A stretch of DNA of 8,976 nt. It comes from a virus. Under the pieces are notes generated by a model. The model saw only the letters and a list, made by a program, of their open reading frames with translations, made no database searches and was not told the origin of the DNA. The position numbers and the translations under genes were made by a program. Below are positions 1 through 8,976 of this stretch, piece after piece. The DNA is taken from the UHGV virus genome UHGV-1999812; one strand, given 5' to 3'. Each line of letters starts with the position of its first letter. Position 1 is the stretch's first letter.

Positions 1-1011
1 CTTCTTTCTGGTGGCATTGACCCAAAAGAGCACAGAGAGAAACAGCGCCTTAGTGAAGTGATGAAGAGAGAGAACACCTTCAGGCATGTAGCTACGCTCT
101 GGTTTGAACTTAAAAAAGGGCAAGGACTCGCAGAAGATACACTACGCGATATATGGCGTTCGCTGGAGCGTAATGTATTCCCGTCAGTCGGTAACAGGCC
201 AATAGCAGACCTGATAGCAAGCAATTTCATCGAAGCATTAAAACCATTAGCCGCCCAGGGGAAATTAGATACCGTCAGAAGGACAGCACAGCGAATCAAT
301 GAGGTCATGTATTACGCCGTTAATACCGGAATGATTGCCGCGAATCCGGCATCAGAGATAAGCAAGGCATTTAACGCGCCAAGCGTTAAGAACATGCCAG
401 CAATACGCCCTGAAGAACTCCCCGAATTTATGCAGAAGCTGTCAACGGCACGAGTGGAACGACAAACGCGACTGGTTATTGAGTGGCAGTTACTGACAAT
501 TTGCCGACCAGGTGAAGCAGCTGGCGCGCGCTGGTGTGAGATTGATTTTGAGGCGAAGGAATGGCGCATACCAGAGCACAGACTTAAACAACGCAGGGAA
601 CACGTAATACCACTCTCGAAGCAGGCGTTAGCCATTCTGGATGTCATGAAGCCAATAAGCGGGCATCGTGAGTTTATATTTCCACACAACAGCGACCCGC
701 AGCGCCATATGTGCACACAAACAGCAAACGCAGCAATAAAACGCATGGGTTTTGGTCGGCGGCTGGTTGCTCATGGCTTGCGCTCAATAGCAAGTACCGC
801 ACTTAACGAGCAAGGTTTTGACTCTGACGTAATCGAGGCGGCATTGTCACACATAGACAAAAACGAGGTTCGCCGCGCGTACAACCGCTCAACCTATCTC
901 GAGCAGCGACGCCCGTTAATGGCGTGGTGGGGGAATTTTGTAGAGGCTGCTGCCAGCGGGAGCGTAAGCGCCACGGGTGGCTATCGTGGGTTAAAAATGG
1001 TTAACGGTTAA
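1..1011 (+). CDS. Tyrosine recombinase / integrase, P4-IntA type (5'-partial)
   Basis: Frame 1 is open from base 1 (LLSGGIDPKEHREKQRLSEV precedes the ORF-track Met at 58) to TAA 1009-1011. The translation carries catalytic-domain signatures of tyrosine recombinases: Arg in LTICRPGEA, His-x-x-Arg in LVAHGLRSIAST, and HIDKNEVRRAYNRSTY with the C-terminal Tyr. Roughly 70-100 N-terminal residues lie upstream of the window. Confidence 0.9.
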   Translation, partial: LLSGGIDPKEHREKQRLSEVMKRENTFRHVATLWFELKKGQGLAEDTLRDIWRSLERNVFPSVGNRPIADLIASNFIEALKPLAAQGKLDTVRRTAQRINEVMYYAVNTGMIAANPASEISKAFNAPSVKNMPAIRPEELPEFMQKLSTARVERQTRLVIEWQLLTICRPGEAAGARWCEIDFEAKEWRIPEHRLKQRREHVIPLSKQALAILDVMKPISGHREFIFPHNSDPQRHMCTQTANAAIKRMGFGRRLVAHGLRSIASTALNEQGFDSDVIEAALSHIDKNEVRRAYNRSTYLEQRRPLMAWWGNFVEAAASGSVSATGGYRGLKMVNG

Positions 1012-1015
1012 GGGC

Positions 1016-1912
1016 ATGGCAAACAAAAAAATAAACCTTCCTGAGAGGGATTATTACCCGTTAGACAAGGCAGCCAGAAGGCTTGGGTGTGACGTTGATG
1101 ACTTGATTCACTTCATCGCTACAGGGAAGATGTGTTTTTGGTACCGTCATCACATAGACGAGGCTTTGACATTACATAATTATAAAAACGCATTTAATAG
1201 TGTATCAGCATCAGATTATTATTATGAAAATGATGAAGGCGTATTCATCAGAGCAACCGACATATTAAAACTACTTGAATCTTCATATTTTGGTGAAAAA
1301 ATAACAAACAATGAAGACCAACTAACGGAAAAGGTATTTTTTTATTACGATAGTAGTTATTCCGAAACGGATATTTTTATATGCAATTATCAGAAATATA
1401 AACAAAGAAAAATCAGAACGCAGTTACCACATAAAATCAGGGTTGTGGCTTCAGGGCTTTTACAGGTATTTAATACAAGCATTGACATAGAGAACCTATC
1501 AAATGAAATTACAAATTGCTCTGTGCGCCGCATTGTTATAGCAGATAAAGCAGAAGAACCAGAGATAACAATAAACCTATATGGCAAAACAATAAATATT
1601 AGTGACGTTTTCATCTCAAAAGAAGAGATAAAAATAGTAATGAACGGCGGCAGACAACCAGGAGATATGGTAAAGGATTTTTCAGATAAACACGCCTTGT
1701 CGCATTCGCAGAGCAAGAAAACAACCAATCTTCAGGCCAGAGTTATCAAAAGACTAATCACCGCCATAGCCGGAGAAGAAGAGGCGTCAAACCCACGAAG
1801 GGCGCTTGAAAACGGTCACAGCAAGTTAAGCCGCGCACTAACCAAAGCAGGGGTTGATATCGGTGCCACACCAACATGCATAGGTAAGTGGCTTGCAGAC
1901 GTTGACGACTGA
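1016..1912 (+). CDS. Hypothetical protein with N-terminal AlpA/excisionase-like HTH and AT-rich central domain
   Basis: 298-codon ORF starting 4 nt after the integrase stop. The N-terminus YPLDKAARRLGCDVDDLIHFIATGKM fits the HTH pattern of AlpA/Xis-type regulators. The central ~500 bp (about 1190-1680) is far more AT-rich than the rest of the window, rich in Asn/Lys/Ile/Tyr codons. Followed by a strong terminator. No family recognised for the rest. Confidence 0.6.
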   Translation: MANKKINLPERDYYPLDKAARRLGCDVDDLIHFIATGKMCFWYRHHIDEALTLHNYKNAFNSVSASDYYYENDEGVFIRATDILKLLESSYFGEKITNNEDQLTEKVFFYYDSSYSETDIFICNYQKYKQRKIRTQLPHKIRVVASGLLQVFNTSIDIENLSNEITNCSVRRIVIADKAEEPEITINLYGKTINISDVFISKEEIKIVMNGGRQPGDMVKDFSDKHALSHSQSKKTTNLQARVIKRLITAIAGEEEASNPRRALENGHSKLSRALTKAGVDIGATPTCIGKWLADVDD

Positions 1913-1923
1913 CAGACTTCTGA

Positions 1924-1947
1924 ACATATGACCGCCCGTAATATTAC
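1924..1947 (+). terminator. Rho-independent terminator downstream of the 298-aa ORF
   Basis: Perfect palindrome GCCCGTAAT/ATTACGGGC (1924-1941) immediately followed by TTTTTT (1942-1947), 12 nt after the stop at 1912. Confidence 0.6.
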
Positions 1948-2050
1948 GGGCTTTTTTCGTAATATTCCGCAATGCCAGCTTTTCCCGTGTTTGCATATCC
2001 TTGAACAAGTTTAGGCAAGTTAGCGCCTGAAACAAAAGGAACGCAAAAGT

Positions 2051-2254
2051 ATGAACATTACAGAAAAGAAAATCCTTACAAAACGAGAAGTCGCAAATCT
2101 TCTTCGCCTTAGTACAACAAGCATTGACACAATGGTTAAGGCTGGTGAGTTTATTCCTGGCTTTAAGCGTGGATTACGCCGCGTTGGCTGGTTTGAGGAT
2201 GAGGTGAAATCATGGCTTGAGAAGAAAGTAGAGGAGCGTTATCAGCAGGAATAA
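2051..2254 (+). CDS. alpA: AlpA-family phage regulatory protein (excisionase-like HTH)
   Basis: 67 aa; LTKREVANLLRLSTTSIDTMVKAGEFIPGFKRGLRRVGWFEDEVKSWL matches the AlpA/Vis-like wHTH pattern (helix, GxFP-x-basic, W-x-E-x-E-V/I-x-x-W). AAGGA upstream of ATG 2051. Position downstream of an integrase is typical. Confidence 0.85.
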   Translation: MNITEKKILTKREVANLLRLSTTSIDTMVKAGEFIPGFKRGLRRVGWFEDEVKSWLEKKVEERYQQE

Positions 2255-2784
2255 TAAATTCCCATATGTGAAATATAAAAGCCACCAGCGCAGAAAATAA
2301 AACGCCTCACGTTATGCAAAACGGGTTAACCGTCGTGATGCCTTGCCGCATTCAATTAACGGCAGGTAAAAAATACCCGCAATGCAATAACACTACGGGC
2401 CATCAACGGAATATAAGGAGTTAACCGATGTGTATTGTATACAGTCGTGTGTATATTGCCACAGGTAACAGGCATCCGCGCCAAATACCCGCCAGAGAAA
2501 ATCAGTTGATCGCCAGTATCAAAAATGGCTATGATTCCCGCGCACCTCATAAAACGGGTGTCGGGATTGGAACCCCGCTGGAGATAAAGGCGATACAGAC
2601 GCCGAACGCGTCTTTTTTTGTATCGGCGCACACGCACACCTTATCAATGGTGGGCTGTATGGGGCTGACTTCGGTCAGGCTGGTTTCCTTTATCGCCAGT
2701 AGTTCCAACTCCGTGCAGTCCACCGCCAGCGAGATTGGAACCTCCAGCGGTGGGTATATCCCAACGATAAAGGAGGCTGCCATC

Positions 2785-2961
2785 ATGGCTACTACCCCTG
2801 CCCTCGTACATTCTCAAACTGCCTTTATCTGGCGCTTTATCATCTTTGGCGCGTCAGAATCCCAAATCATCCACGTAACCGCCTGGACGGAACGCGAAGC
2901 GCGTAACCGTTGCCCGTCCGGTTGTGTCGCTGTATTCGCCGCCCGTATTCGTCAGGGGTGA
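2785..2961 (+). CDS. Icd-like small protein (host cell division inhibitor Icd family), copy 1
   Basis: AAGGAGG (2770-2776) sits 8 nt before ATG 2785. The 58-aa product MATTPALVHSQTAFIWRFIIFGASESQIIHVTAWTEREARNR... has the F-x-WRF and T-x-x-EAR motifs I associate with Icd-like proteins, and ordinary codon usage. The in-frame ORF extends upstream to ATG 2428 (also with an AAGGAG RBS), but that extension has four ATA and three AGG/AGA codons and looks low-complexity, so I prefer the short start; the true start is uncertain. Confidence 0.55.
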   Translation: MATTPALVHSQTAFIWRFIIFGASESQIIHVTAWTEREARNRCPSGCVAVFAARIRQG

Positions 2962-3258
2962 GTCATGCTTAAAAACATGTTGATCGCCTCTTCTTTCGGG
3001 CTGTATGATGCCGGAGTCGTCCACATGGCGACCGGGTTTGACAGCCTGAATACTACAGCGGACAGCCGCTTACATTCCGATATGCGGTTTTTTTGTGTCC
3101 GTAAGCCTACCCATACCCGCATTATGGCGGGGCGTAACGGGGGAGCCTTTGCGCTCGCTGGTTCCTGTAGTGCCAGTCTGTCAACCCTGTTACGTCTCGC
3201 CACCATGTTTGACAGCGTAGTAGCGAGACTCCTTAATTTCACTACAGGAGCCTTTCAC

Positions 3259-3429
3259 ATGGCTGTATTCGCACGCCCTTACTTTGTCTGGCGCTTTATG
3301 CAGTGCCACCACAGCAACATCGATGTATTCACCGTTACCGCTGCCACTGAGCACGAAGCACGCGCACAACTTCCGCACACCCATCTGATTTTTGTCACCC
3401 TTATTCGTGAGGGGGTGAGTCATGCGTGA
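3259..3429 (+). CDS. Icd-like small protein, tandem paralogue (copy 2)
   Basis: AGGAG (3246-3250) 8 nt before ATG 3259. The product MAVFARPYFVWRFMQCHHSNIDVFTVTAATEHEARAQLPHTHLIFVTLIREGVSHA aligns with copy 1 over FxWRF ... VTA-TE-EAR ... IR-G. The in-frame ORF extends to ATG 2965; start uncertain. Its stop overlaps the next gene's start (GGGGGTGAGTCATGCGTGA). Confidence 0.5.
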   Translation: MAVFARPYFVWRFMQCHHSNIDVFTVTAATEHEARAQLPHTHLIFVTLIREGVSHA

Positions 3430-3736
3430 TGTGTGTAACACCAGAATACTTGAACAACTGGTTACAACCATAAAAACAGCTGACGCACGGGAAGCGAGAG
3501 CGATGTTTGATGATGCTGACTTCTACGCCCGCAAATTGCTTGAAGGGCTGGCTATCACAGGGCGCTTACTTTCTGGCATGAGTGACAGCATTGACCCTGA
3601 CATGGACGAACTGCGCAGCCTGGGCGATTCCATCGCTGTTACGGCTGAACTTGTGGCCGGATTCAGTGAGGTTGTGGAGGTGTACAACTGGCGTTGTCGT
3701 AACGGAGATATCAGTGCTGATTATCGCCATTCGTGA
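3422..3736 (+). CDS. Hypothetical protein (104 aa)
   Basis: ORF whose ATG is embedded in GGGGGTGAGTCATG and overlaps the upstream stop, suggesting translational coupling. Acidic, helical-looking sequence with ordinary codon usage. No family recognised. Confidence 0.55.
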   Translation: MRDVCNTRILEQLVTTIKTADAREARAMFDDADFYARKLLEGLAITGRLLSGMSDSIDPDMDELRSLGDSIAVTAELVAGFSEVVEVYNWRCRNGDISADYRHS

Positions 3737-3809
3737 TAAGGCAACGACAGGCACCGCTAACCGCATTTATGCAGCAACGGCGTAACTGACCAGAACAAAG
3801 GATAAAAAA

Positions 3810-4109
3810 ATGAACATGAAAAAAACTGGCTTAACTGCCAGCGGCAAGCCTCGCCCTGAATTTAAGCGCGGTGATATTTACCGCGACCAGTACGGCGGCA
3901 CGGTAATGATTAAGGGCGTGGCGGGGCGGTGCGTCACCTACCGCCGTAAAGGCTACGAATATGACTGCGTGATGCCTGTTTATCAGTTTTCCCGTGATTT
4001 TTCTCTGGTGCAGGCGGTACCGCGTAACGTGCCCACCAGCAACGTAAAGGCACTGGCAAAAATACAGAAGATGAAAAAGATGATTAACGCATTCAGGGGC
4101 AAGAAATGA
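3810..4109 (+). CDS. Hypothetical small basic protein (99 aa)
   Basis: AAGGA 6 nt before ATG 3810. Its stop TGA 4107-4109 overlaps ATG 4106 of the helicase gene (ATGA coupling). Lys/Arg-rich. No family recognised. Confidence 0.6.
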   Translation: MNMKKTGLTASGKPRPEFKRGDIYRDQYGGTVMIKGVAGRCVTYRRKGYEYDCVMPVYQFSRDFSLVQAVPRNVPTSNVKALAKIQKMKKMINAFRGKK

Positions 4110-5503
4110 AAAGCGCACCGAACTTAAAAAAACAGCCTTACGACAAAATGACCGAGGTCATTATTTTTGCGGGTAGTGATGCCTGGGCACACGCGAAGCA
4201 GTGGCAGGAGCAGGAGGGCCGACTTGCTGGCGATAATGTGCCACCTGTATGGCTTGGGGAGCAGCAACTGGCAGAACTGGCAGACACGAAAATCATTGAC
4301 GAGGGGCGCTATTGCGTCCGGCTGTACAAAGCAGGCCATATCAGACCATCAAATATTAATGCCATCGCGCAAAAACTGGCAGCGGCAGGCGTACAGGATG
4401 CGAATTATTACCCCGATGGGATGCACAGCCAGAAGCGGGAGAACTGGCGCGAATATCTGGAACGGGAGCGCGGGGAAAAGCAGGAAGAAAAAGGCCACCA
4501 GCGCAAAACAAAGCTACCGATGAGCGTTGGTTCTGCCGGATACGATACACAACTTGATTACGTGGTAAAGGGGATTATTCCGGCAGTATCGCTGTGCAGC
4601 ATATACGGGGCGAGCGGTTCCTATAAATCGTTCCTTGCGGGTTCGTGGGCGTGTCACGTTTCCACGGGCCGCCAGTGGGGAGGCCGCAGGGTGGCGCATG
4701 GCGCTGTTCTCTATGTGGTTGGTGAAGGCGGTATCGGCGTTCCGCGTCGTGTAAAAGCCTGGGAGGTTGTGCACGGTGAGCAGGTGAAAAATCTGTATCT
4801 GGTAAACCGCCCCATCTTTCCGGCTGCCCCGCTTGATGTTGATGAAATGGTTATCGCTGCCCGCCAGGTGGAACGGGAAACGGGTAAACCTGTACGCATG
4901 ATTATTCTGGATACGCTGGCGCGTTGCTTTGGTGGGAATGATGAAAATGATTCCCGTGATATGGGGGCATTTATCCGTGGGTGTGACGAGCTTAAACGGC
5001 GCACAGGGGCCACGGTGCTGGTGGTTCACCATTCCGGCAAGGATGAGACGAAAGGCGCGCGCGGTTCCAGTGCATTTCGTGCTTCGCTGGATGCTGAATA
5101 CCGGATACGCAGGGAGGACGCAGGAAGCGAAGCGCTGGTTATCTCATGTACCAAAATGAAGGACGCGGAGGAACTCAAAGAAGCCGCATATGACTTACGC
5201 GTGGTGGAGCTTTTTACCGACGCTGACGGGGAGTTAATTACGTCGCTGGTGGTGGTGGATAAGCCGCGGCATCCCGTTGAACCTGAGCGCATCGAGGAGG
5301 CAGGGAACAAGACGGAAAACCATACCGCGCTATGGGGGTGCATACGTTCACGCACACAGAACGGCGACAAGTGCACGATCCCGCTGTTACGTGATGACAT
5401 GAAACGGCTTGGGTATGACGTGAAAAACATGCGGCGATGGTTAGCAAAACTGGAGAAAGACGACGTTATCTATATCGACGGTGATGATGTAGGCCCACTG
5501 TAA
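4106..5503 (+). CDS. RepA/DnaB-like P-loop replicative helicase (RecA-fold ATPase) with N-terminal domain of unknown function
   Basis: 465 aa. Walker A-like SIYGASGSYKSFLA, Walker B-like VRMIILDTLARCFGG (hhhhD), and VLVVHHSGKDETKGARGSSAF resembling the sensor/arginine-finger region of RepA-type helicases. Followed immediately by an iteron cluster. Confidence 0.85.
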   Translation: MKSAPNLKKQPYDKMTEVIIFAGSDAWAHAKQWQEQEGRLAGDNVPPVWLGEQQLAELADTKIIDEGRYCVRLYKAGHIRPSNINAIAQKLAAAGVQDANYYPDGMHSQKRENWREYLERERGEKQEEKGHQRKTKLPMSVGSAGYDTQLDYVVKGIIPAVSLCSIYGASGSYKSFLAGSWACHVSTGRQWGGRRVAHGAVLYVVGEGGIGVPRRVKAWEVVHGEQVKNLYLVNRPIFPAAPLDVDEMVIAARQVERETGKPVRMIILDTLARCFGGNDENDSRDMGAFIRGCDELKRRTGATVLVVHHSGKDETKGARGSSAFRASLDAEYRIRREDAGSEALVISCTKMKDAEELKEAAYDLRVVELFTDADGELITSLVVVDKPRHPVEPERIEEAGNKTENHTALWGCIRSRTQNGDKCTIPLLRDDMKRLGYDVKNMRRWLAKLEKDDVIYIDGDDVGPL

Positions 5504-5703
5504 AAAAGTGAGTAGAAAAGTGAGTAATGGTGAGATTTTTACAAAATATTAACACGATTACTCACTTTCTCACCTGTATATAGGCAAAAAAGTGAGTAGT
5601 AAAAAATCACATATAAAACACGCACATAGAAAACCCGAAAATCACAGGTGAGACGAAGTGAGCGATTCCAAAAAGTGAGTAAAAAAGTGAGTAGTGGTGA
5701 GTA
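5504..5703. repeat. Iteron-like direct repeats (GTGAGTA core), putative replication origin
   Basis: At least six direct copies of (A)AAAGTGAGTA(G) at 5504-5514, 5516-5526, 5589-5600, 5670-5681, 5682-5693 and 5697-5703; degenerate GGTGAGA at 5529-5535 and 5647-5653; one inverted copy TTACTCACTTT at 5558-5568. AT-rich tracts flank it (5535-5556, 5747-5777). No long ORF with a ribosome-binding site. Confidence 0.6.
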
Positions 5704-5942
5704 AACAGCAAAAAACACAGAGCAGAGCAGCACGAAAACACAGAAAATCACTTTATTTTTATTTAAGTGTTTTGCTCATGAACGAAGGGCCACAACACGG
5801 CAGAAAGACACGCGAAAGCCCCCTGGCTGATAAGTGCATTCATGAGCACAGCAGCAACAAACTTTACCACGCTGACAGAGCGGGAGATTGCAGAAGCGGA
5901 ACAGGTAACAACCATCAACGTTAAAACCGGAGAGGTGGAATC

Positions 5943-6353
5943 ATGACAGCGCAGATAGCAGCTTACGGGCGACTGATTGACGACCCGCAGACAAAACAGA
6001 CCAGTAAGGGCACACCGATGACGCTGGCACGTATGGCGGTATCGCTGCCATGCAGTCAGGCACAGGACGGACAGGCGACGTTATGGCTATCAGTCCTGGC
6101 ATTTTGTAAGCAGGCCGACCAACTGGCAGGACATGAGAAAGGCAACGTAATCAGCGTATCCGGTGTGATGCAGGTCAGTCAGTGGACCGGACAGAACGGG
6201 GAAACGCGGCAGGGTTATCAGGTCATTGCAGACAGCGTAATCAGTGCGAAAACGGCGCGACCAGGTGGCAACAGACGCAGGACCACAGGCACACAGGGTA
6301 ATCAGCCACCAGCGGGAGGCGATGACCCTTACGGTGACAATATTCCGTTCTGA
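5943..6353 (+). CDS. ssb: Single-stranded DNA-binding protein (SSB family)
   Basis: 136 aa. The N-terminal two-thirds align by eye with E. coli SSB (WLSVLAFCKQADQLAGHEKGNVISVSGVMQVSQWTGQNGETRQGYQVIADSV vs [52 protein letters not shown]). Gly/Gln-rich linker and acidic tail DDPYGDNIPF ending in the hallmark IPF. GGAGAGGTGG RBS before ATG 5943. Confidence 0.85.
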   Translation: MTAQIAAYGRLIDDPQTKQTSKGTPMTLARMAVSLPCSQAQDGQATLWLSVLAFCKQADQLAGHEKGNVISVSGVMQVSQWTGQNGETRQGYQVIADSVISAKTARPGGNRRRTTGTQGNQPPAGGDDPYGDNIPF

Positions 6354-6363
6354 GGGGTGAACG

Positions 6364-6633
6364 ATGGTACATGACAGCATAGCGGAAGAACTGGAGGCGA
6401 AGGGCTTTTACCGGAGAGCGGCGGCGCGATGGGCTGAAGTGATGATGCTGGTGGAGACTGACAGGGAACGCGAACGGGTGGCAATGCGCAGGGCAGAGTG
6501 TTACGGGAAGACGCAGAGGCCACCGGAGCAACCGGATGATTTAGGCGGCCTGAAACGGGCGATTAAACGCACTGAAAAAGAAATGGGGATAGACGGGAGA
6601 GGCAAAAAAATCTGGCGTAGCTACCAGAAGTAA
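6364..6633 (+). CDS. PerC-family transcriptional activator
   Basis: 89 aa. N-terminal DSIAEELEAKGFYRRAAARWAEVMMLVETDRERERVAMRRAECYGK matches the conserved PerC core (E-x-K-G-x-YRRAA-x-RW-x-EV) as I recall it. ATG is 10 nt after the ssb stop. Confidence 0.75.
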   Translation: MVHDSIAEELEAKGFYRRAAARWAEVMMLVETDRERERVAMRRAECYGKTQRPPEQPDDLGGLKRAIKRTEKEMGIDGRGKKIWRSYQK

Positions 6634-6746
6634 GCACAGAGCCGGAACAGTCGGTTAGCCTTTCTGATTGTGTGCGTGTATATCGTTTTATTGCGACGTT
6701 AAATTAAACTGGTAGGACCAGATACACCAACGCAAGAGGCTACCGG

Positions 6747-7154
6747 ATGAACGAGCAAACCCATCACGTACCAAAAGACATCGAGCGGCTTAAATTCATC
6801 GACGCCATAGACAACGGAGATAAACCAGGTGATGCATGGTGTGATTCGCTTGCTGATATCGTGTCGCATTCAGTAGCGGAGCTTACCCGTAATGGCATGG
6901 AGGAGGCAGACGCTTTCAGAATCGCAAAGCGGGTTGTCGCTGCAATCGCCTTCTATGCTGGTGGGCGAAGTCTTTACCTTCCAACAGGCAGATCACTTTT
7001 CGCAGCATTGCGCGAATACGAGATTTACTACAGGTGGGATAACGGCGAAAAATTGCAGGTATTACGCAAAGAGTACGCAATATCCGAAACCCATATTTAC
7101 GACATCATACGACGACTGAGAAAGAAGCACGCCAATAAAATCACGCAAGACTAA
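6747..7154 (+). CDS. Mor-family transcriptional activator
   Basis: 135 aa. The C-terminal half FRIAKRVVAAIAFYAGGRSLYLPTGRSLFAALREYEIYYRWDNGEKLQVLRKEYAISETHIYDIIRRLRKK aligns with phage Mu Mor (EIVVAICKHLGGGQVYIPRGQALDSLIRDLRIWNDFNGRNVSELTTRYGVTFNTVYKAIRRMRR): GG-x-YIP-x-G, R-x-x-I, F-x-G-x-N, Y-x-I-RR-x-R. AGAGG RBS 7 nt before ATG. Confidence 0.8.
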   Translation: MNEQTHHVPKDIERLKFIDAIDNGDKPGDAWCDSLADIVSHSVAELTRNGMEEADAFRIAKRVVAAIAFYAGGRSLYLPTGRSLFAALREYEIYYRWDNGEKLQVLRKEYAISETHIYDIIRRLRKKHANKITQD

Positions 7155-7289
7155 CCACAGATACCAGCAGCAACCGTTATATTTGCGCCACTATCGCAAA
7201 AAATCCCCTTTCAGGGCATCACGGACGCCACAAAACACCAAAACGCATCAGAGAGCGAATCAGGCGCTTTAATGATGATTTGTTTTTTT

Positions 7290-7358
7290 GTGAAAGAAGG
7301 TGAAAGAAGGTGATTTTTGTGAAATTAAGCGAAATCACGTGAAATCAGGTGAAATAAT
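7290..7358. repeat. Seven 10-bp-phased GTGAAA direct repeats (protein-binding array or curved DNA)
   Basis: gTGAAAgaag (7290-7299), gTGAAAgaag (7300-7309), gTGAtttttg, tGAAAttaag, cGAAAtcac, gtGAAAtcag, gtGAAAtaat: the GAAA cores fall at 7292, 7302, (7312), 7321, 7331, 7341, 7351, one helical turn apart. Contains the palindrome TCACGTGA (7335-7342). Lies between the Mor-like gene and the RNA array. Confidence 0.6.
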
Positions 7359-7395
7359 GATACCCGTTCATCTGGTGCTACCAGACGAAACAGAC

Positions 7396-7424
7396 TTTAC
7401 CCGCGCATAATGCATGATTACTAT
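7396..7424 (+). promoter_or_regulatory. Putative weak sigma-70-like promoter upstream of the tRNA-like RNA array
   Basis: TTTACC (7396-7401), 17-nt spacer, TACTAT (7419-7424); predicted start near 7431, where the first RNA unit begins. Each hexamer matches consensus at only 4 of 6 positions. Confidence 0.2.
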
Positions 7425-7436
7425 TTTGCCTGGCTG

Positions 7437-7517
7437 TATGGTGTACTCTTAATCGGTAAAGCGGCATAAACCCTAACGGGCCATATGTTTATGTGGGTTC
7501 GACCCCCGCCACCAACA
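7437..7517 (+). ncRNA. tRNA-like structured RNA, unit 1 of 3
   Basis: T-arm GTGGG (7493-7497) / loop TTCGACC / CCCGC (7505-7509), with a U·G at the second pair; acceptor-like 3' strand CACCAAC (7510-7516) then unpaired A; D-arm-like TCTT / AATCGGTA / AAGC. The 5' acceptor strand is degenerate (5 of 7 pairs). No encoded CCA. Confidence 0.4.
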
Positions 7518-7540
7518 GCCAACTACCTTATCGCTTTTTT

Positions 7541-7631
7541 GCTGGTGTACTCTTAATCGGTAAAGCGGCACCCGCTTGTATAGCTTCCAGAAAGCGGGAT
7601 GTTTATGTGGGTTCGACCCCCACCACCAGCA
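7541..7631 (+). ncRNA. tRNA-like structured RNA, unit 2 of 3
   Basis: Acceptor-like helix GCTGGTG (7541-7547) with CACCAGC (7624-7630) and unpaired A7631; T-arm GTGGG (7607-7611) / TTCGACC / CCCAC (7619-7623); central 7-bp hairpin CCCGCTT (7571-7577) / AAGCGGG (7592-7598) with a 14-nt loop in the anticodon-arm position. Confidence 0.45.
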
Positions 7632-7654
7632 GCCAACAACCTCATCGCTTTTTT

Positions 7655-7736
7655 GCTGGTGTACGCTCAACGGGTAGAGTCGGTGCCAGCCTGTACAGGC
7701 TGATCATGTATGCGGGTTCGACCCCCGCCACCAGCA
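7655..7736 (+). ncRNA. tRNA-like structured RNA, unit 3 of 3
   Basis: Acceptor GCTGGTG (7655-7661) / CACCAGC (7729-7735) with unpaired A7736; D-arm GCTC (7665-7668) / AACGGGTA / GAGT (7677-7680); central hairpin CAGCC (7687-7691) / TGTACA / GGCTG (7698-7702); T-arm GCGGG (7712-7716) / TTCGACC / CCCGC (7724-7728). Non-canonical for a tRNA: 3-nt linker after the acceptor strand, 6-nt central loop, no CCA. Confidence 0.45.
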
Positions 7737-7965
7737 CGCCAAAAGCACAATTGCGCCATTTCTAAACCCACTTTAAAGCCACATAAAAACGGCTTTCGTA
7801 TCCCGTTTTATTGAGCACTCACGAAAAATGTGTACATACGCGTGTACATATACAAATTAACCCAACCCAAAGAACCGCATAATAAAAGCAATTAACGCAC
7901 ATACTAAACATTCAGATTCAATATTGAGTAACTCGTAACACTAATTCTTACTTTTCAGCCTTCAC

Positions 7966-8000
7966 AAATGCCGCCCACTCAAACAGAGCGGCATTTTTCT
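7966..8000 (+). terminator. Rho-independent terminator between island end and the dinD promoter
   Basis: Stem AAATGCCGC (7966-7974) / GCGGCATTT (7988-7996), 13-nt loop, followed by TTTTTCTT. Confidence 0.5.
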
Positions 8001-8090
8001 TCCCCGCAACTTCAATTCTGTTTTGCGTGCCTGCTCCAGATTTTGCGATGTTTTTTTGCCCAGCACACTGAGAACGTGAGATACTCACAA

Positions 8091-8106
8091 CTGTATATAA
8101 ATACAG
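8091..8106 (+). promoter_or_regulatory. LexA operator (SOS box) of the dinD promoter
   Basis: CTGTATATAAATACAG is a perfect CTGT-N8-ACAG palindrome with an AT-rich centre, about 45 nt upstream of the dinD start codon; it overlaps TATATAAAT, which could serve as the -10. Confidence 0.85.
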
Positions 8107-8151
8107 TTACAGATTTACTTTCTTTGCAATCGATATCACATGGAGTGGGCA

Positions 8152-8976
8152 ATGAACGAACATCATCAACCTTTTGAAGAAATACGGCATTATGGCACTG
8201 AAGGGCAAGAATTTTGGTCAGCTAGAGAATTGGCACCGTTACTGGATTATCGGGACTGGCGCAATTTTCAAAAGGTACTGGCCCGCGCGACTCAAGCGTG
8301 CGAAGCCAGCAATCAAGCTGCATCTGACCATTTCGTTGAAACCACCAAAATGGTTGTATTAGGTTCAGGGGCTCAACGAGAACTTGAAGATGTTCATCTC
8401 TCCCGCTATGCCTGTTACCTGGTAGTACAAAACGGCGACCCTGCGAAACCGGTCATTGCGGCAGGGCAGACTTATTTTGCTATCCAGACCCGACGGCAGG
8501 AGCTTGCTGACGATGAAGCATTTAAGCAACTTCGTGAAGACGAAAAGCGTCTGTTTCTGAGAAATGAGTTGAAAGAACATAACAAACAATTGGTTGAGGC
8601 AGCACAGCAAGCTGGGGTAGCGACAGCTACTGATTTCGCCATATTTCAGAATCATGGTTACCAGGGGCTGTATGGTGGATTAGATCAGAAAGCCATCCAC
8701 CAACTGAAGGGGCTGAAAAAGAGTCAGAAGATCCTGGATCATATGGGTTCAACAGAACTGGCGGCTAATCTCTTTCGAGCTACCCAAACAGAAGAAAAAC
8801 TCAAGCGGGATGGCGTGAATTCAAAACAGCAAGCTAATACCACACACTTTGACGTGGGTAGCAAGGTGAGGCAAACCATTCAGGAACTTGGCGGAACCAT
8901 GCCTGAGGAGTTGCCGACCCCGCAGGTCAGCATCAAGCAGTTGGAAAACAGTGTAAAAATTACAGAGAAGAAATAG
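8152..8976 (+). CDS. dinD: DNA damage-inducible protein D (DinD)
   Basis: 274-aa product beginning MNEHHQPFEEIRHYGTEGQEFWSARELAPLL, which I recognise as E. coli DinD. GGAG (8142-8145) lies 6 nt before ATG 8152; the ORF-track start at 8140 adds four residues (MEWA) and overlaps that RBS, so 8152 is preferred. LexA box upstream. Stop TAG at 8974-8976. Confidence 0.9.
   Translation: MNEHHQPFEEIRHYGTEGQEFWSARELAPLLDYRDWRNFQKVLARATQACEASNQAASDHFVETTKMVVLGSGAQRELEDVHLSRYACYLVVQNGDPAKPVIAAGQTYFAIQTRRQELADDEAFKQLREDEKRLFLRNELKEHNKQLVEAAQQAGVATATDFAIFQNHGYQGLYGGLDQKAIHQLKGLKKSQKILDHMGSTELAANLFRATQTEEKLKRDGVNSKQQANTTHFDVGSKVRQTIQELGGTMPEELPTPQVSIKQLENSVKITEKK

Follow-up and report, generated by a model that had tools for sequence, protein, structure and literature searches.

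The 8,976-nt stretch of virus genome UHGV-1999812 analysed here, which as a whole we call the window, consists largely of an Escherichia coli integrative island whose right end carries an array of three tRNA-like RNAs. The window holds ~7.9 kb of this island, which is ~8.3 kb long in its relatives, and lacks the left ~0.4 kb. All large open reading frames (ORFs) of positions 1-7154 lie on the plus strand, and the modules follow one another as integration, Bro/immunity, replication and late module, which is the plan of phage-inducible chromosomal islands (PICIs) of Gram-negative bacteria. A first-pass annotation, made from the letters alone, had listed a co-directional integrase, an AlpA-like regulator, Icd-like genes, a helicase, iterons, a single-strand DNA-binding protein (SSB), two activators and terminal RNA repeats. 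All of these proved to be real, and its comparison with the integrase-alpA-replication arrangement of Gram-negative PICIs was borne out by the Pfam and PHROG identities and their order. Its further suggestion of an unconventional, possibly RNA-based function survived in part: the terminal repeats turned out to be tRNA-like RNAs that are also found in Mu-like phages, while the function itself stays a lead. As known here from sequence alone, the element is probably a PICI-type, phage-satellite-like island, and because its layout agrees with that class we filed it as working like a PICI.

The array comprises unit 1 (7436-7517), unit 2 (7541-7631) and unit 3 (7655-7736), all on the plus strand. 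Each of the units has kept U8 and an acceptor stem of seven pairs; the D loop contains GG, and the loop of the T arm reads UUCGACC. In unit 1 a short hairpin takes the position of the anticodon arm, alongside acceptor, D and T arms; unit 2 has a long central hairpin with a 14-nt loop and a fold z-score of -2.4, and unit 3 carries the central hairpin CAGCCU-GUAC-AGGCUG. The Rfam tRNA model scores units 1 to 3 at 19.8, 33.9 and 35 bits, respectively, and these scores of 20-35 bits arise from the acceptor, D and T arms alone. The units are not tRNA genes: ARAGORN calls none of them, nor any other tRNA in the window, and the loop of the central hairpin has 4 or 14 nt instead of the 7 nt of an anticodon loop. 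In relatives, the Prokaryotic Genome Annotation Pipeline (PGAP) labels the units ‘tRNA-OTHER’ or ‘tRNA-Tyr’, the latter being its label for unit 3; both labels are misleading for these RNAs.

A covariance model built from the family (R1) scores the three units at 81.2, 87.5 and 89.8 bits. It matches only the island arrays, with two or three units each, and the gap between the F and G genes of Mu-like phages (see below); it gives no match on the genuine ileX tRNA, phage Mu, a capsid-forming PICI or another island at yicC. Across 17 distinct sequences, 93.8% of the alignment cells in the three helices are paired, and 8 of the 16 pairs changed on both sides, compared with 0-2 in slid controls. 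G-U pairs and the consensus of the D and T loops favour the tRNA-sense strand. The covariation thus indicates that the terminal repeats are a tRNA-like RNA family common to islands and Mu-like phages. True tRNAs and the tRNA-like domains of transfer-messenger RNA (tmRNA) share with this family the seven-pair acceptor stem, U8, the GG of the D loop, a UUCGAnC T loop and 12 stacked pairs. By contrast, the island and Mu-like units have a short hairpin (with a UUCG, GNRA or GUAC tetraloop) or a long one in place of the anticodon arm, none of them encodes CCA, and the discriminator base is variable; they have neither a G3-U70 pair nor an mRNA-like part. Given the 12 stacked pairs, the units are plausible RNase P substrates. 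The array is probably transcribed together with the upstream genes for SSB, PerC and Mor, since no terminator-like site was found on the plus strand across 5450-8200.

The number of units varies among copies of the module, with three in the window and in L004, L012, L023 and L072 and two in L001, L002, L005, L063, L066 and L070. In L002, units 1 and 2 are fused, which indicates unequal recombination within the array. We considered the units as leftover att duplications and rejected this idea, as the units are full length, their central hairpins differ and neither integrase type has its att core there. Antisense targets of the variable central hairpins were sought in the island and in the available parts of Mu-like prophages, and only chance matches of 11-13 nt appeared. 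In the literature searched, no paper links tRNA-like RNAs to PICIs or other satellites, or to Mu-like prophages of E. coli.

Outside the islands, ~75 complete E. coli genomes contain a ‘tRNA-OTHER’ that shares 86% identity with unit 3 across 73 nt, and Mu-like phages integrated into Shiga toxin (Stx) phages contain it too. The Mu-like element sits between the Mu F-like and G-like head genes and is antisense to both. Sp18-type Mu-like prophages contain, in this F-G gap, single-copy homologues of each of the three units. Pattern scans located this element also in 15 contigs of IMG/VR, in Mu-like prophages of Citrobacter braakii and Edwardsiella anguillarum and in gut metagenomes. In phage Mu itself the F and G genes overlap (L081 4390-4393), leaving no such gap or element. 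Mu-like phages with nearly identical G proteins bear different tRNA-like variants, and the closest Mu-like variant differs for each island unit: 84% identity for unit 1 (L060-type), 76% for unit 2 (L054-type) and ~80% for unit 3. Separately, the 1.1-kb environmental contig L057 carries two tRNA-like copies on the minus strand (122-194 and 756-830), ~630 nt apart. One of them is much more diverged (39.7 bits), and the only recognisable neighbour is a distant Mu F-like fragment.

A second connection to the same phages lies upstream of the array. The plus-strand ORF at 6747-7154 encodes a Mor-family regulator, a member of the phage Mu middle/late activator family (PF08765, precomputed for the exact protein; phrog_532, ‘late transcriptional activator’), which is 47% identical to a Mor-family protein ahead of the late genes in an Sp18-type Mu-like prophage. 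Relatives of Mor were absent from species-representative genomes, and IMG/VR gave a single distant match. Between Mor and the array, a plus-strand cluster at 7285-7364 contains five GTGAAA repeats and TGATACC. When positions 7284-7305 are compared with the left end of Sp18-type Mu-like prophages, 19 of 21 bases agree with nt 35-55; we set the prophage end at L052 4074 from the empty ydeN site. The motif is kept in diverged Mu-like prophage ends. The pac site of Mu is located, as we assume, ~32-58 bp from its left end, and the GTGAAA cluster is possibly a pac or activator-binding site, as a candidate only.

Both homologies make an Sp18-type Mu-like phage the most likely helper candidate. There is precedent for a Mu-family phage that induces and packages a PICI, namely PmCI172/PmCI86 of Pasteurella multocida, where a Mu-like phage is the documented helper of PmCI172 (PMC6092414). 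In comparison, the Mu-like link of the present island consists only of the homology of Mor and of the tRNA-like RNAs and of a short end-like motif. We advance, as a tentative idea with a low probability, that the array is an RNA-level interface between the satellite and a Mu-like helper, and that the island is a minimal satellite of transposable phages which uses RNA and cis-acting sites rather than proteins. The satellite would have gathered one copy of each of three phage tRNA-mimic variants, released by RNase P. These RNAs might pair with and disturb the F-G late mRNA of the helper, might supply or titrate a partner that is served by the phage RNA, or might be a decoy against a tRNA-directed host defence. 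The Mor homologue and the Mu-end-like motif, as a possible pac site, would contribute.

Alternatively, the satellite depends on a helper outside the Mu-like group. Mor and the tRNA-like genes would then be cargo of an accessory kind, such as an anti-defence or regulatory RNA, that travels between unrelated mobile elements. The tRNA-like gene of the Mu-like phages does look inserted, being absent from Mu, antisense to late genes and equipped with a promoter-like -10 of its own (a TATAAA(AT) box a few bases upstream of the copy at L034 6997-7076), and the characterised PICIs of E. coli use lambdoid or P22-like helpers (PMC11773190, PMC6092414). However, the island shows two independent homologies to one phage group, the 47% identity of Mor and the three variant-matched units, to which the left-end-like motif adds a weak third link, and it lacks the cos sites of lambda and P2. 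We therefore hold a non-Mu-like helper to be possible though on the doubtful side.

Upstream of the replication genes, the island encodes two tandem RNA immunity cassettes on the plus strand. Cassette 1 (2506-2961) consists of a promoter-like site, an isrK leader, a C4 RNA and an Icd-like ORF; cassette 2 (2980-3429) consists of a promoter-like site, an isrK-like leader, a C4 RNA and an Icd-like domain. The promoter-like site, TTGATC-18-TATGAT, is identical ahead of both leaders (2506-2535 and 2980-3009). The isrK/seqA-like leader of cassette 1 (2542-2618) scores 63.8 bits against Rfam isrK (RF01394; gathering score 50) and ends in a terminator-like hairpin (2597-2613), and the leader of cassette 2 (3016-3094) scores 32.3 bits, under the gathering score. 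Both C4 antisense RNAs (RF01695; gathering score 45) match the model over its full length (positions 1-87 of 87), with 77.6 bits at 2643-2730 and 72.3 bits at 3120-3207. The predicted duplex of each C4 with its own leader reaches -55.0 kcal/mol in cassette 1 (equalled by 1 of 300 shuffles) and -57.5 kcal/mol in cassette 2 (0 of 300), and pairing with the leader of the other cassette is not significant; each C4 is also predicted to pair with the segment directly downstream. Both cassettes therefore have the arrangement of P4-type RNA immunity, in which a CI-type RNA pairs with seqA- and seqC-type sites: in P4 the CI RNA pairs with seqA and seqC, and the island cassettes follow the same logic. 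The Rfam C4 and isrK models are known to detect relatives of CI and seqA in Gram-negative PICIs (Tommasini et al., PMC10111431).

The Icd-like domains (NF033153) are confined to the last ~45 codons after each C4, one in a short ORF at ~2773-2961 and the other at 3283-3405 within the ORF 2965-3429. An Icd-like ORF after a C4 RNA is also found in phage P1, and the immI region of phages P1/P7 ranks with P4 among the closest known systems. Longer ORFs of 177 and 154 aa (2428-2961 and 2965-3429) run over the RNA genes on the same strand; they match Pfam Phage_ASH or, in relatives, carry Ash or long ‘Icd-like’ annotations. These long ORFs are probably not proteins over most of their length, and Ash or long Icd-like labels on ORFs that overlap C4 and isrK RNAs are misleading. 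As a side observation, the Phage_ASH and long Icd-like protein families may partly derive from translated RNA genes.

Ahead of the replication module, a plus-strand ORF encodes a hypothetical protein of 104 aa (3422-3736), which is conserved in all relatives and matches no family in Pfam, PHROG, PADLOC or NCBIfam. The module itself begins with a DUF4222 protein (3810-4109; Pfam 82 bits) whose gene overlaps the start of the helicase gene. The latter (4106-5503) encodes a RepA-family (AAA_25) replicative helicase/initiator with a Pfam AAA_25 score of 149 bits and a full-length match to phrog_2850; it also matches the primase/helicase families phrog_906 and phrog_3228, over the helicase part only, and no primase domain was found in it. 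At the nucleotide level, the helicase gene is 89% identical to its homologue in a capsid-forming PICI. Adjacent to it, an iteron cluster at 5506-5693 is the probable origin: it contains six exact copies of AAGTGAGTA, five direct and one inverted, and the window has no other copy even at one mismatch. The gene for the SSB (5943-6353; Pfam 53.6 bits, phrog_44) follows. Gram-negative PICIs have a replication module of their own (primase/rep) beside an iteron origin, and the island may correspond to this pattern with its RepA/AAA_25 helicase, six iterons and SSB but no primase domain. A PerC-family regulator (6364-6633; Pfam PerC 126.6 bits) separates SSB from Mor; all of these genes lie on the plus strand.

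At the left end, the last 336 codons of a tyrosine integrase gene of the P4 family occupy positions 1-1011; the product matches Pfam Phage_int_M and Phage_integrase and scores 452 bits against NCBIfam PRK09692 over profile positions 81-412 of 413. The full-length protein has 421 aa in relatives L005 and L023, and the first ~85 codons as well as attL lie outside the window. The integrase reads inward from one end and is followed on the same strand by an AlpA-type excisionase/regulator (2051-2254), as in Gram-negative PICIs; AlpA matches Pfam Phage_AlpA (23 bits, cutoff 21), HTH_17 and phrog_66 (‘excisionase and transcriptional regulator’). Between the two, a plus-strand ORF at 1016-1912 in an AT-rich stretch (GC ~34%) encodes a 298-aa ORFan, with a terminator-like hairpin (1934-1951) on its 3' side. 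The ORFan has no Pfam, PHROG, PADLOC or NCBIfam match, and its homologues form only 11 protein clusters, all from E. coli or Salmonella. Its AlphaFold2 model has a pLDDT of 58.6, with an N-terminus that resembles a winged helix-turn-helix at low confidence; the best Foldseek hit in the PDB had a meaningless E-value of 0.7. Islands of the yicC type (see below) contain other hypothetical proteins between integrase and alpA, so this position looks like a variable cargo slot.

No ORF of the window belongs to a structural or lysis gene family in Pfam or PHROG scans, nor to the families of PICI packaging devices (terS, rpp/ppi and capsid-remodelling genes), and PADLOC found no defence system in any ORF tested. 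In gene order and nucleotide sequence (80-89% identity), the E. coli ST130 island L053 agrees with the window over the immunity cassette, DUF4222, RepA, iteron region, SSB and PerC. Beyond these, L053 has the gene content of a capsid-forming PICI: major capsid protein, protease, portal, head closure, connector, HNH, TerS and TerL. The place of this packaging module is taken in the window's island by Mor and the tRNA-like array, and the integrase and integration site differ as well; genes for capsid, portal, protease, connector and terminase are absent from the window and from the complete relatives.

The island could have decayed from a capsid-forming PICI through loss of the capsid/terminase module and now be an immobile remnant instead of a working satellite. 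The shared immunity and replication modules, the absence of all structural genes and the mismatch of integrase and attR in the window's copy (described below) point in this direction, as does the rating of such elements as uncertain or possibly defective ‘Type C’ in SatelliteFinder, to the extent that it is quoted in PMC11773190. Nevertheless, every ORF is intact, the same island occurs at ileX, at the secondary site in mdtP and here, and the capsid module has been replaced by a conserved module and not merely deleted. Comparable PICIs can also be mobile: EcCIMP1, which has no identifiable packaging genes, was excised and transferred experimentally with a helper (PMC11773190). The SSB-PerC-Mor-array module occurs on two different backbones, which argues for selection and exchange rather than decay, and we regard the remnant explanation as improbable. 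An integrative plasmid-like or mobilisable element, spread by conjugation or generalised transduction, would account for the features of an autonomous replicon (RepA helicase, iterons and SSB). Yet no relaxase, oriT-associated or transfer family occurs in any ORF (Pfam, PHROG, NCBIfam), and the succession of int, AlpA, RNA immunity, replication and late-activator homologues is the layout of P4/PICI-type satellites (PMC10111431); this explanation appears very unlikely to us.

Among the known systems, the island resembles EcCIMP1 and other ‘Type C’ PICIs in being small, with a terminal integrase, AlpA, an Ash/Icd/C4 ‘Bro-zone’, a replication module with origin and PerC, and in having no capsid, terminase or lysis genes; it conforms to the four-zone layout of Gram-negative PICIs, whose C4/isrK RNAs are related to P4 CI/seqA (PMC10111431). 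It differs from them by its RepA helicase instead of a primase, its two tandem immunity cassettes and its Mor and RNA-array end, and the window's copy additionally by its mismatched integrase and attR. With P4, the island shares a P4-family integrase and immunity by a small processed CI/C4 RNA that pairs upstream and downstream of itself. It is not P4-like otherwise: families of sid, psu, delta and the alpha primase as well as a P2-type cos are missing, and its activators belong to the PerC and Mor families. The presence of a late-activator homologue on a satellite parallels P4 Delta, as an analogy only. At the level of the island, the element is probably a PICI-type satellite without packaging genes, one more of a known sort.

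The window from 1 to 7744 is 98-99% identical to islands in a few strains of bovine origin or of Shiga toxin-producing E. coli (STEC), and human, bovine and deer isolates from several countries have copies at 96-99% identity. On contigs that encode the exact proteins of the window, the complete island is located either between mug-ileX and nfeF or inside mdtP beside fdhF. The ileX copy is ~8.35 kb long and, as comparison with the empty site of K-12 shows, has at both boundaries the sequence CAGCAGGG(G)CCACCA, with which tRNA-Ile2 ends at its 3' side; in L005, ~8.3 kb lie between these repeats, in agreement with the size (~8-15 kb) and flanking repeats of PICIs. Both arms of the ileX-type island contain AAAAAGGCATAC repeats. 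The same island, integrase included, is found at 98% identity inside the efflux gene mdtP at the look-alike core CATCCCGGG, where the target resembles the ileX T arm (TTCAAcTtCAtCcCGGG versus TTCAAgTcCAgCaGGGG); the insertion splits mdtP into parts of 364 and 128 aa (L023 5400-5440 and 13870-13900; also L012, L015, L016, L021 and L022). Its occurrence at two other sites in unrelated strains argues for mobility. In none of the complete relatives did capsid or terminase genes lie beyond the integrase; chromosome follows on both sides. The first-pass annotation had seen no packaging genes and had allowed that some might lie just outside the window, which the relatives do not bear out.

Islands of a second type (L002, L004) occupy yicC-dinD. 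Their integrase is unrelated, they encode a toprim and DUF927 primase, their arm repeats read GTGTACATAC and their SSB is truncated; they share nearly the same PerC-Mor-array end with the window, so that two integrase/replication backbones carry one conserved SSB-PerC-Mor-array module. A third, unrelated PICI-like island at yicC-dinD (L091 1-8600) encodes a primase with Zn_Ribbon_Prim, Toprim_3 and DUF5906 domains, which makes this site a hotspot of several satellite families. Strain JNEC-KY203 has, between ileX and the window-type island, a further island whose integrase faces outward; a 3' half-copy of ileX separates the two islands (L001 1988-3304 and 3490-3545) and indicates a tandem array of different elements at ileX.

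At the right side of the window, homology to genomes with an empty site begins at 7913, as determined in a search of 5,426 complete E. coli genomes. Together with the match to K-12, this places the end of the island at ~7913-7920, and the sequence to its right is ordinary chromosome. The island thus does not reach the dinD promoter (8151), as had been proposed. The segment 7745-7912 is the right (P) arm of the island type that is specific for yicC; its arm-type repeats GTGTACATACGCGTGTACATA lie at 7830-7850. The next stretch, 7913-7932, comprises the attR core (CAGATTCA, 7913-7920) along with the native yicC 3' end in its displaced position, recognised by its homology to empty sites. The 8-mer CAGATTCA also occurs at the yicC end (attL) in L002 and L004. 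Alignment with island-free genomes therefore fixed attR at the 3' end of yicC; the left end is outside the window. The chromosomal stretch 7933-8976, matched by 4,707 of the 5,426 genomes, is collinear with K-12 and holds the yicC terminator (~7968-7999), the LexA box (8091-8106) and dinD (8152-8976), all on the plus strand. In K-12, dinD follows yicC directly with no island between them, as the first-pass annotation had stated, and the hairpin, LexA box and dinD start are the same. The annotators were also correct that the LexA box and dinD are intact, and their suggestion of a strain-specific insertion holds; the terminator they had noted at 7966-8000 exists as a hairpin, which is the native terminator of yicC.

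Three side observations concern this site. Islands of the yicC type insert into the final codons of yicC and provide a replacement 3' end (...QIQNVE*; L003 3520-3545, L004 2160-2185), with the original end displaced to attR. Two yicC ends exist among empty-site strains, CAGATTCAGAACATCGAATAA in K-12 and CAGATTCAATATTGA in many others, and this difference may be the scar of a past integration and excision. DinD carries a Bro-N domain (precomputed Pfam), a family typical of the antirepressor zones of phages and satellites, and a DinD of exactly the window's sequence is found in >25,000 blocks of the contig collection.

The right arm at 7745-7912 does not match the integrase of the window, whose own arms carry AAAAAGGCATAC repeats. 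The window follows the ileX/mdtP-type island up to ~7563 and the yicC-type right arm from 7741 on: its positions 6100-7744 are 99.9% identical to the mdtP-site island of STEC17-183, and 7745-7960 match only yicC-type islands. The recombination breakpoint hence falls between ~7563 and 7741, inside the array. It had been implied that the window's integrase inserted the island at yicC; this does not hold, as its cognate sites are ileX and mdtP and the attR stems from the other island family. With integrase and attR from different island types, the copy is either a recombinant or an assembly chimera.

The window's junction is present in 0 of the 5,426 complete genomes. Of the longest contigs coding for the window's exact ORFan, helicase or Mor protein, not one sets the island beside dinD; contigs retrieved by these proteins or by the exact DinD protein have islands at ileX or mdtP or empty yicC-dinD sites, never this junction. 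An assembly artefact, in which a source strain harboured both an ileX/mdtP island and a yicC-dinD island that were joined via the ~600-bp Mor-to-array repeat, has an appreciable, if less than even, chance of being correct. Both island types do occur together in one complete genome (JNEC-KY203), 7155-7744 is almost identical in both types and internally repetitive, the switch of type falls within the array (7563-7741), and the junction is missing from the complete genomes and longest contigs examined. On the other side, a similar mosaic has arisen independently in L066, a metagenome contig of another lineage (89-92% identity) in which a module with full SSB and RepA-type replication is joined to a yicC-type arm, so that such mosaics are not unique, and there is a viable route to the junction. 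On the K-12 map, yicC/dinD is a plus-strand locus at 3.82 Mb and mdtP a minus-strand gene at 4.30 Mb, with oriC, as we assume, between them. Islands at the two sites would be inverted repeats flanking oriC, and a crossover in the shared ~600-bp module would invert the region and produce the window's order.

The copy is most simply explained by such an oriC-spanning inversion between mdtP-site and yicC-site islands; a chimera assembled across the shared repeat explains the junction data equally well. A comparable tandem that arose by homologous recombination between two PICIs has been described (Tommasini et al., PMC10111431). A synthetic ileX-type attP, which would mark a tandem or cointegrate, had no contiguous match in the complete genomes. 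We rejected a single crossover between islands at ileX and yicC, because these are in direct orientation ~600 kb apart and the event would presumably delete an essential region; we take the K-12 segment between the two sites to hold essential genes. If real, the junction would not allow clean excision by the island's own integrase. The mismatched ends would then mean that islands with a shared module can recombine, possibly inverting the oriC region.

Several observations weigh against a working satellite that is served by a Mu-like helper, in addition to the missing counterparts of the junction. The replication protein is a RepA helicase, whereas most definitions of PICIs use a primase. Lambda cosN and the P2/P4 cos are absent from the window, as is the P2-type cos pattern with ≤3 mismatches allowed; no pac or cos site was identified, and the intergenic cos candidates of the capsid-forming PICI have no similarity to the island. 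The island was not found among IMG/VR viral contigs. The match to the Mu-like left end is weak, with a local alignment score of 32 against 22.6 ± 2.4 for shuffles, and since 5 of 500 shuffles reached this score, we treat the motif as a lead and not as a finding; it is also partly altered in one island lineage. Finally, the tRNA-like gene and Mor could be cargo that is swapped among mobile elements without any helper relation.

If the island nevertheless works as a PICI, its cycle might proceed as follows. RNA immunity would silence the replication operon in the integrated state, and a helper phage, most likely of the Sp18-type Mu-like group, would trigger AlpA-dependent excision. RepA and the iterons would replicate the excised circle, which would be packaged via a putative packaging site into capsids of the helper; we propose helper capsids because neither a capsid or terminase gene nor a known cos site is found on the island. 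The array would be transcribed with SSB, PerC and Mor and cut by RNase P into stable units, and these tRNA-like RNAs would act at the satellite-helper or phage-host interface. The copy in the window, if real, would be locked in place by its mismatched ends.

PICI-type elements without packaging genes are an abundant and mostly unassigned class, to which this island adds another member. Its most worthwhile part is the terminal module, with tRNA-shaped RNAs that have no anticodon loop and a connection to Mu-like phages. If these RNAs mediate a satellite-helper or phage-defence interaction, they would represent an RNA-based mechanism and would point to the helper of an orphan satellite family.

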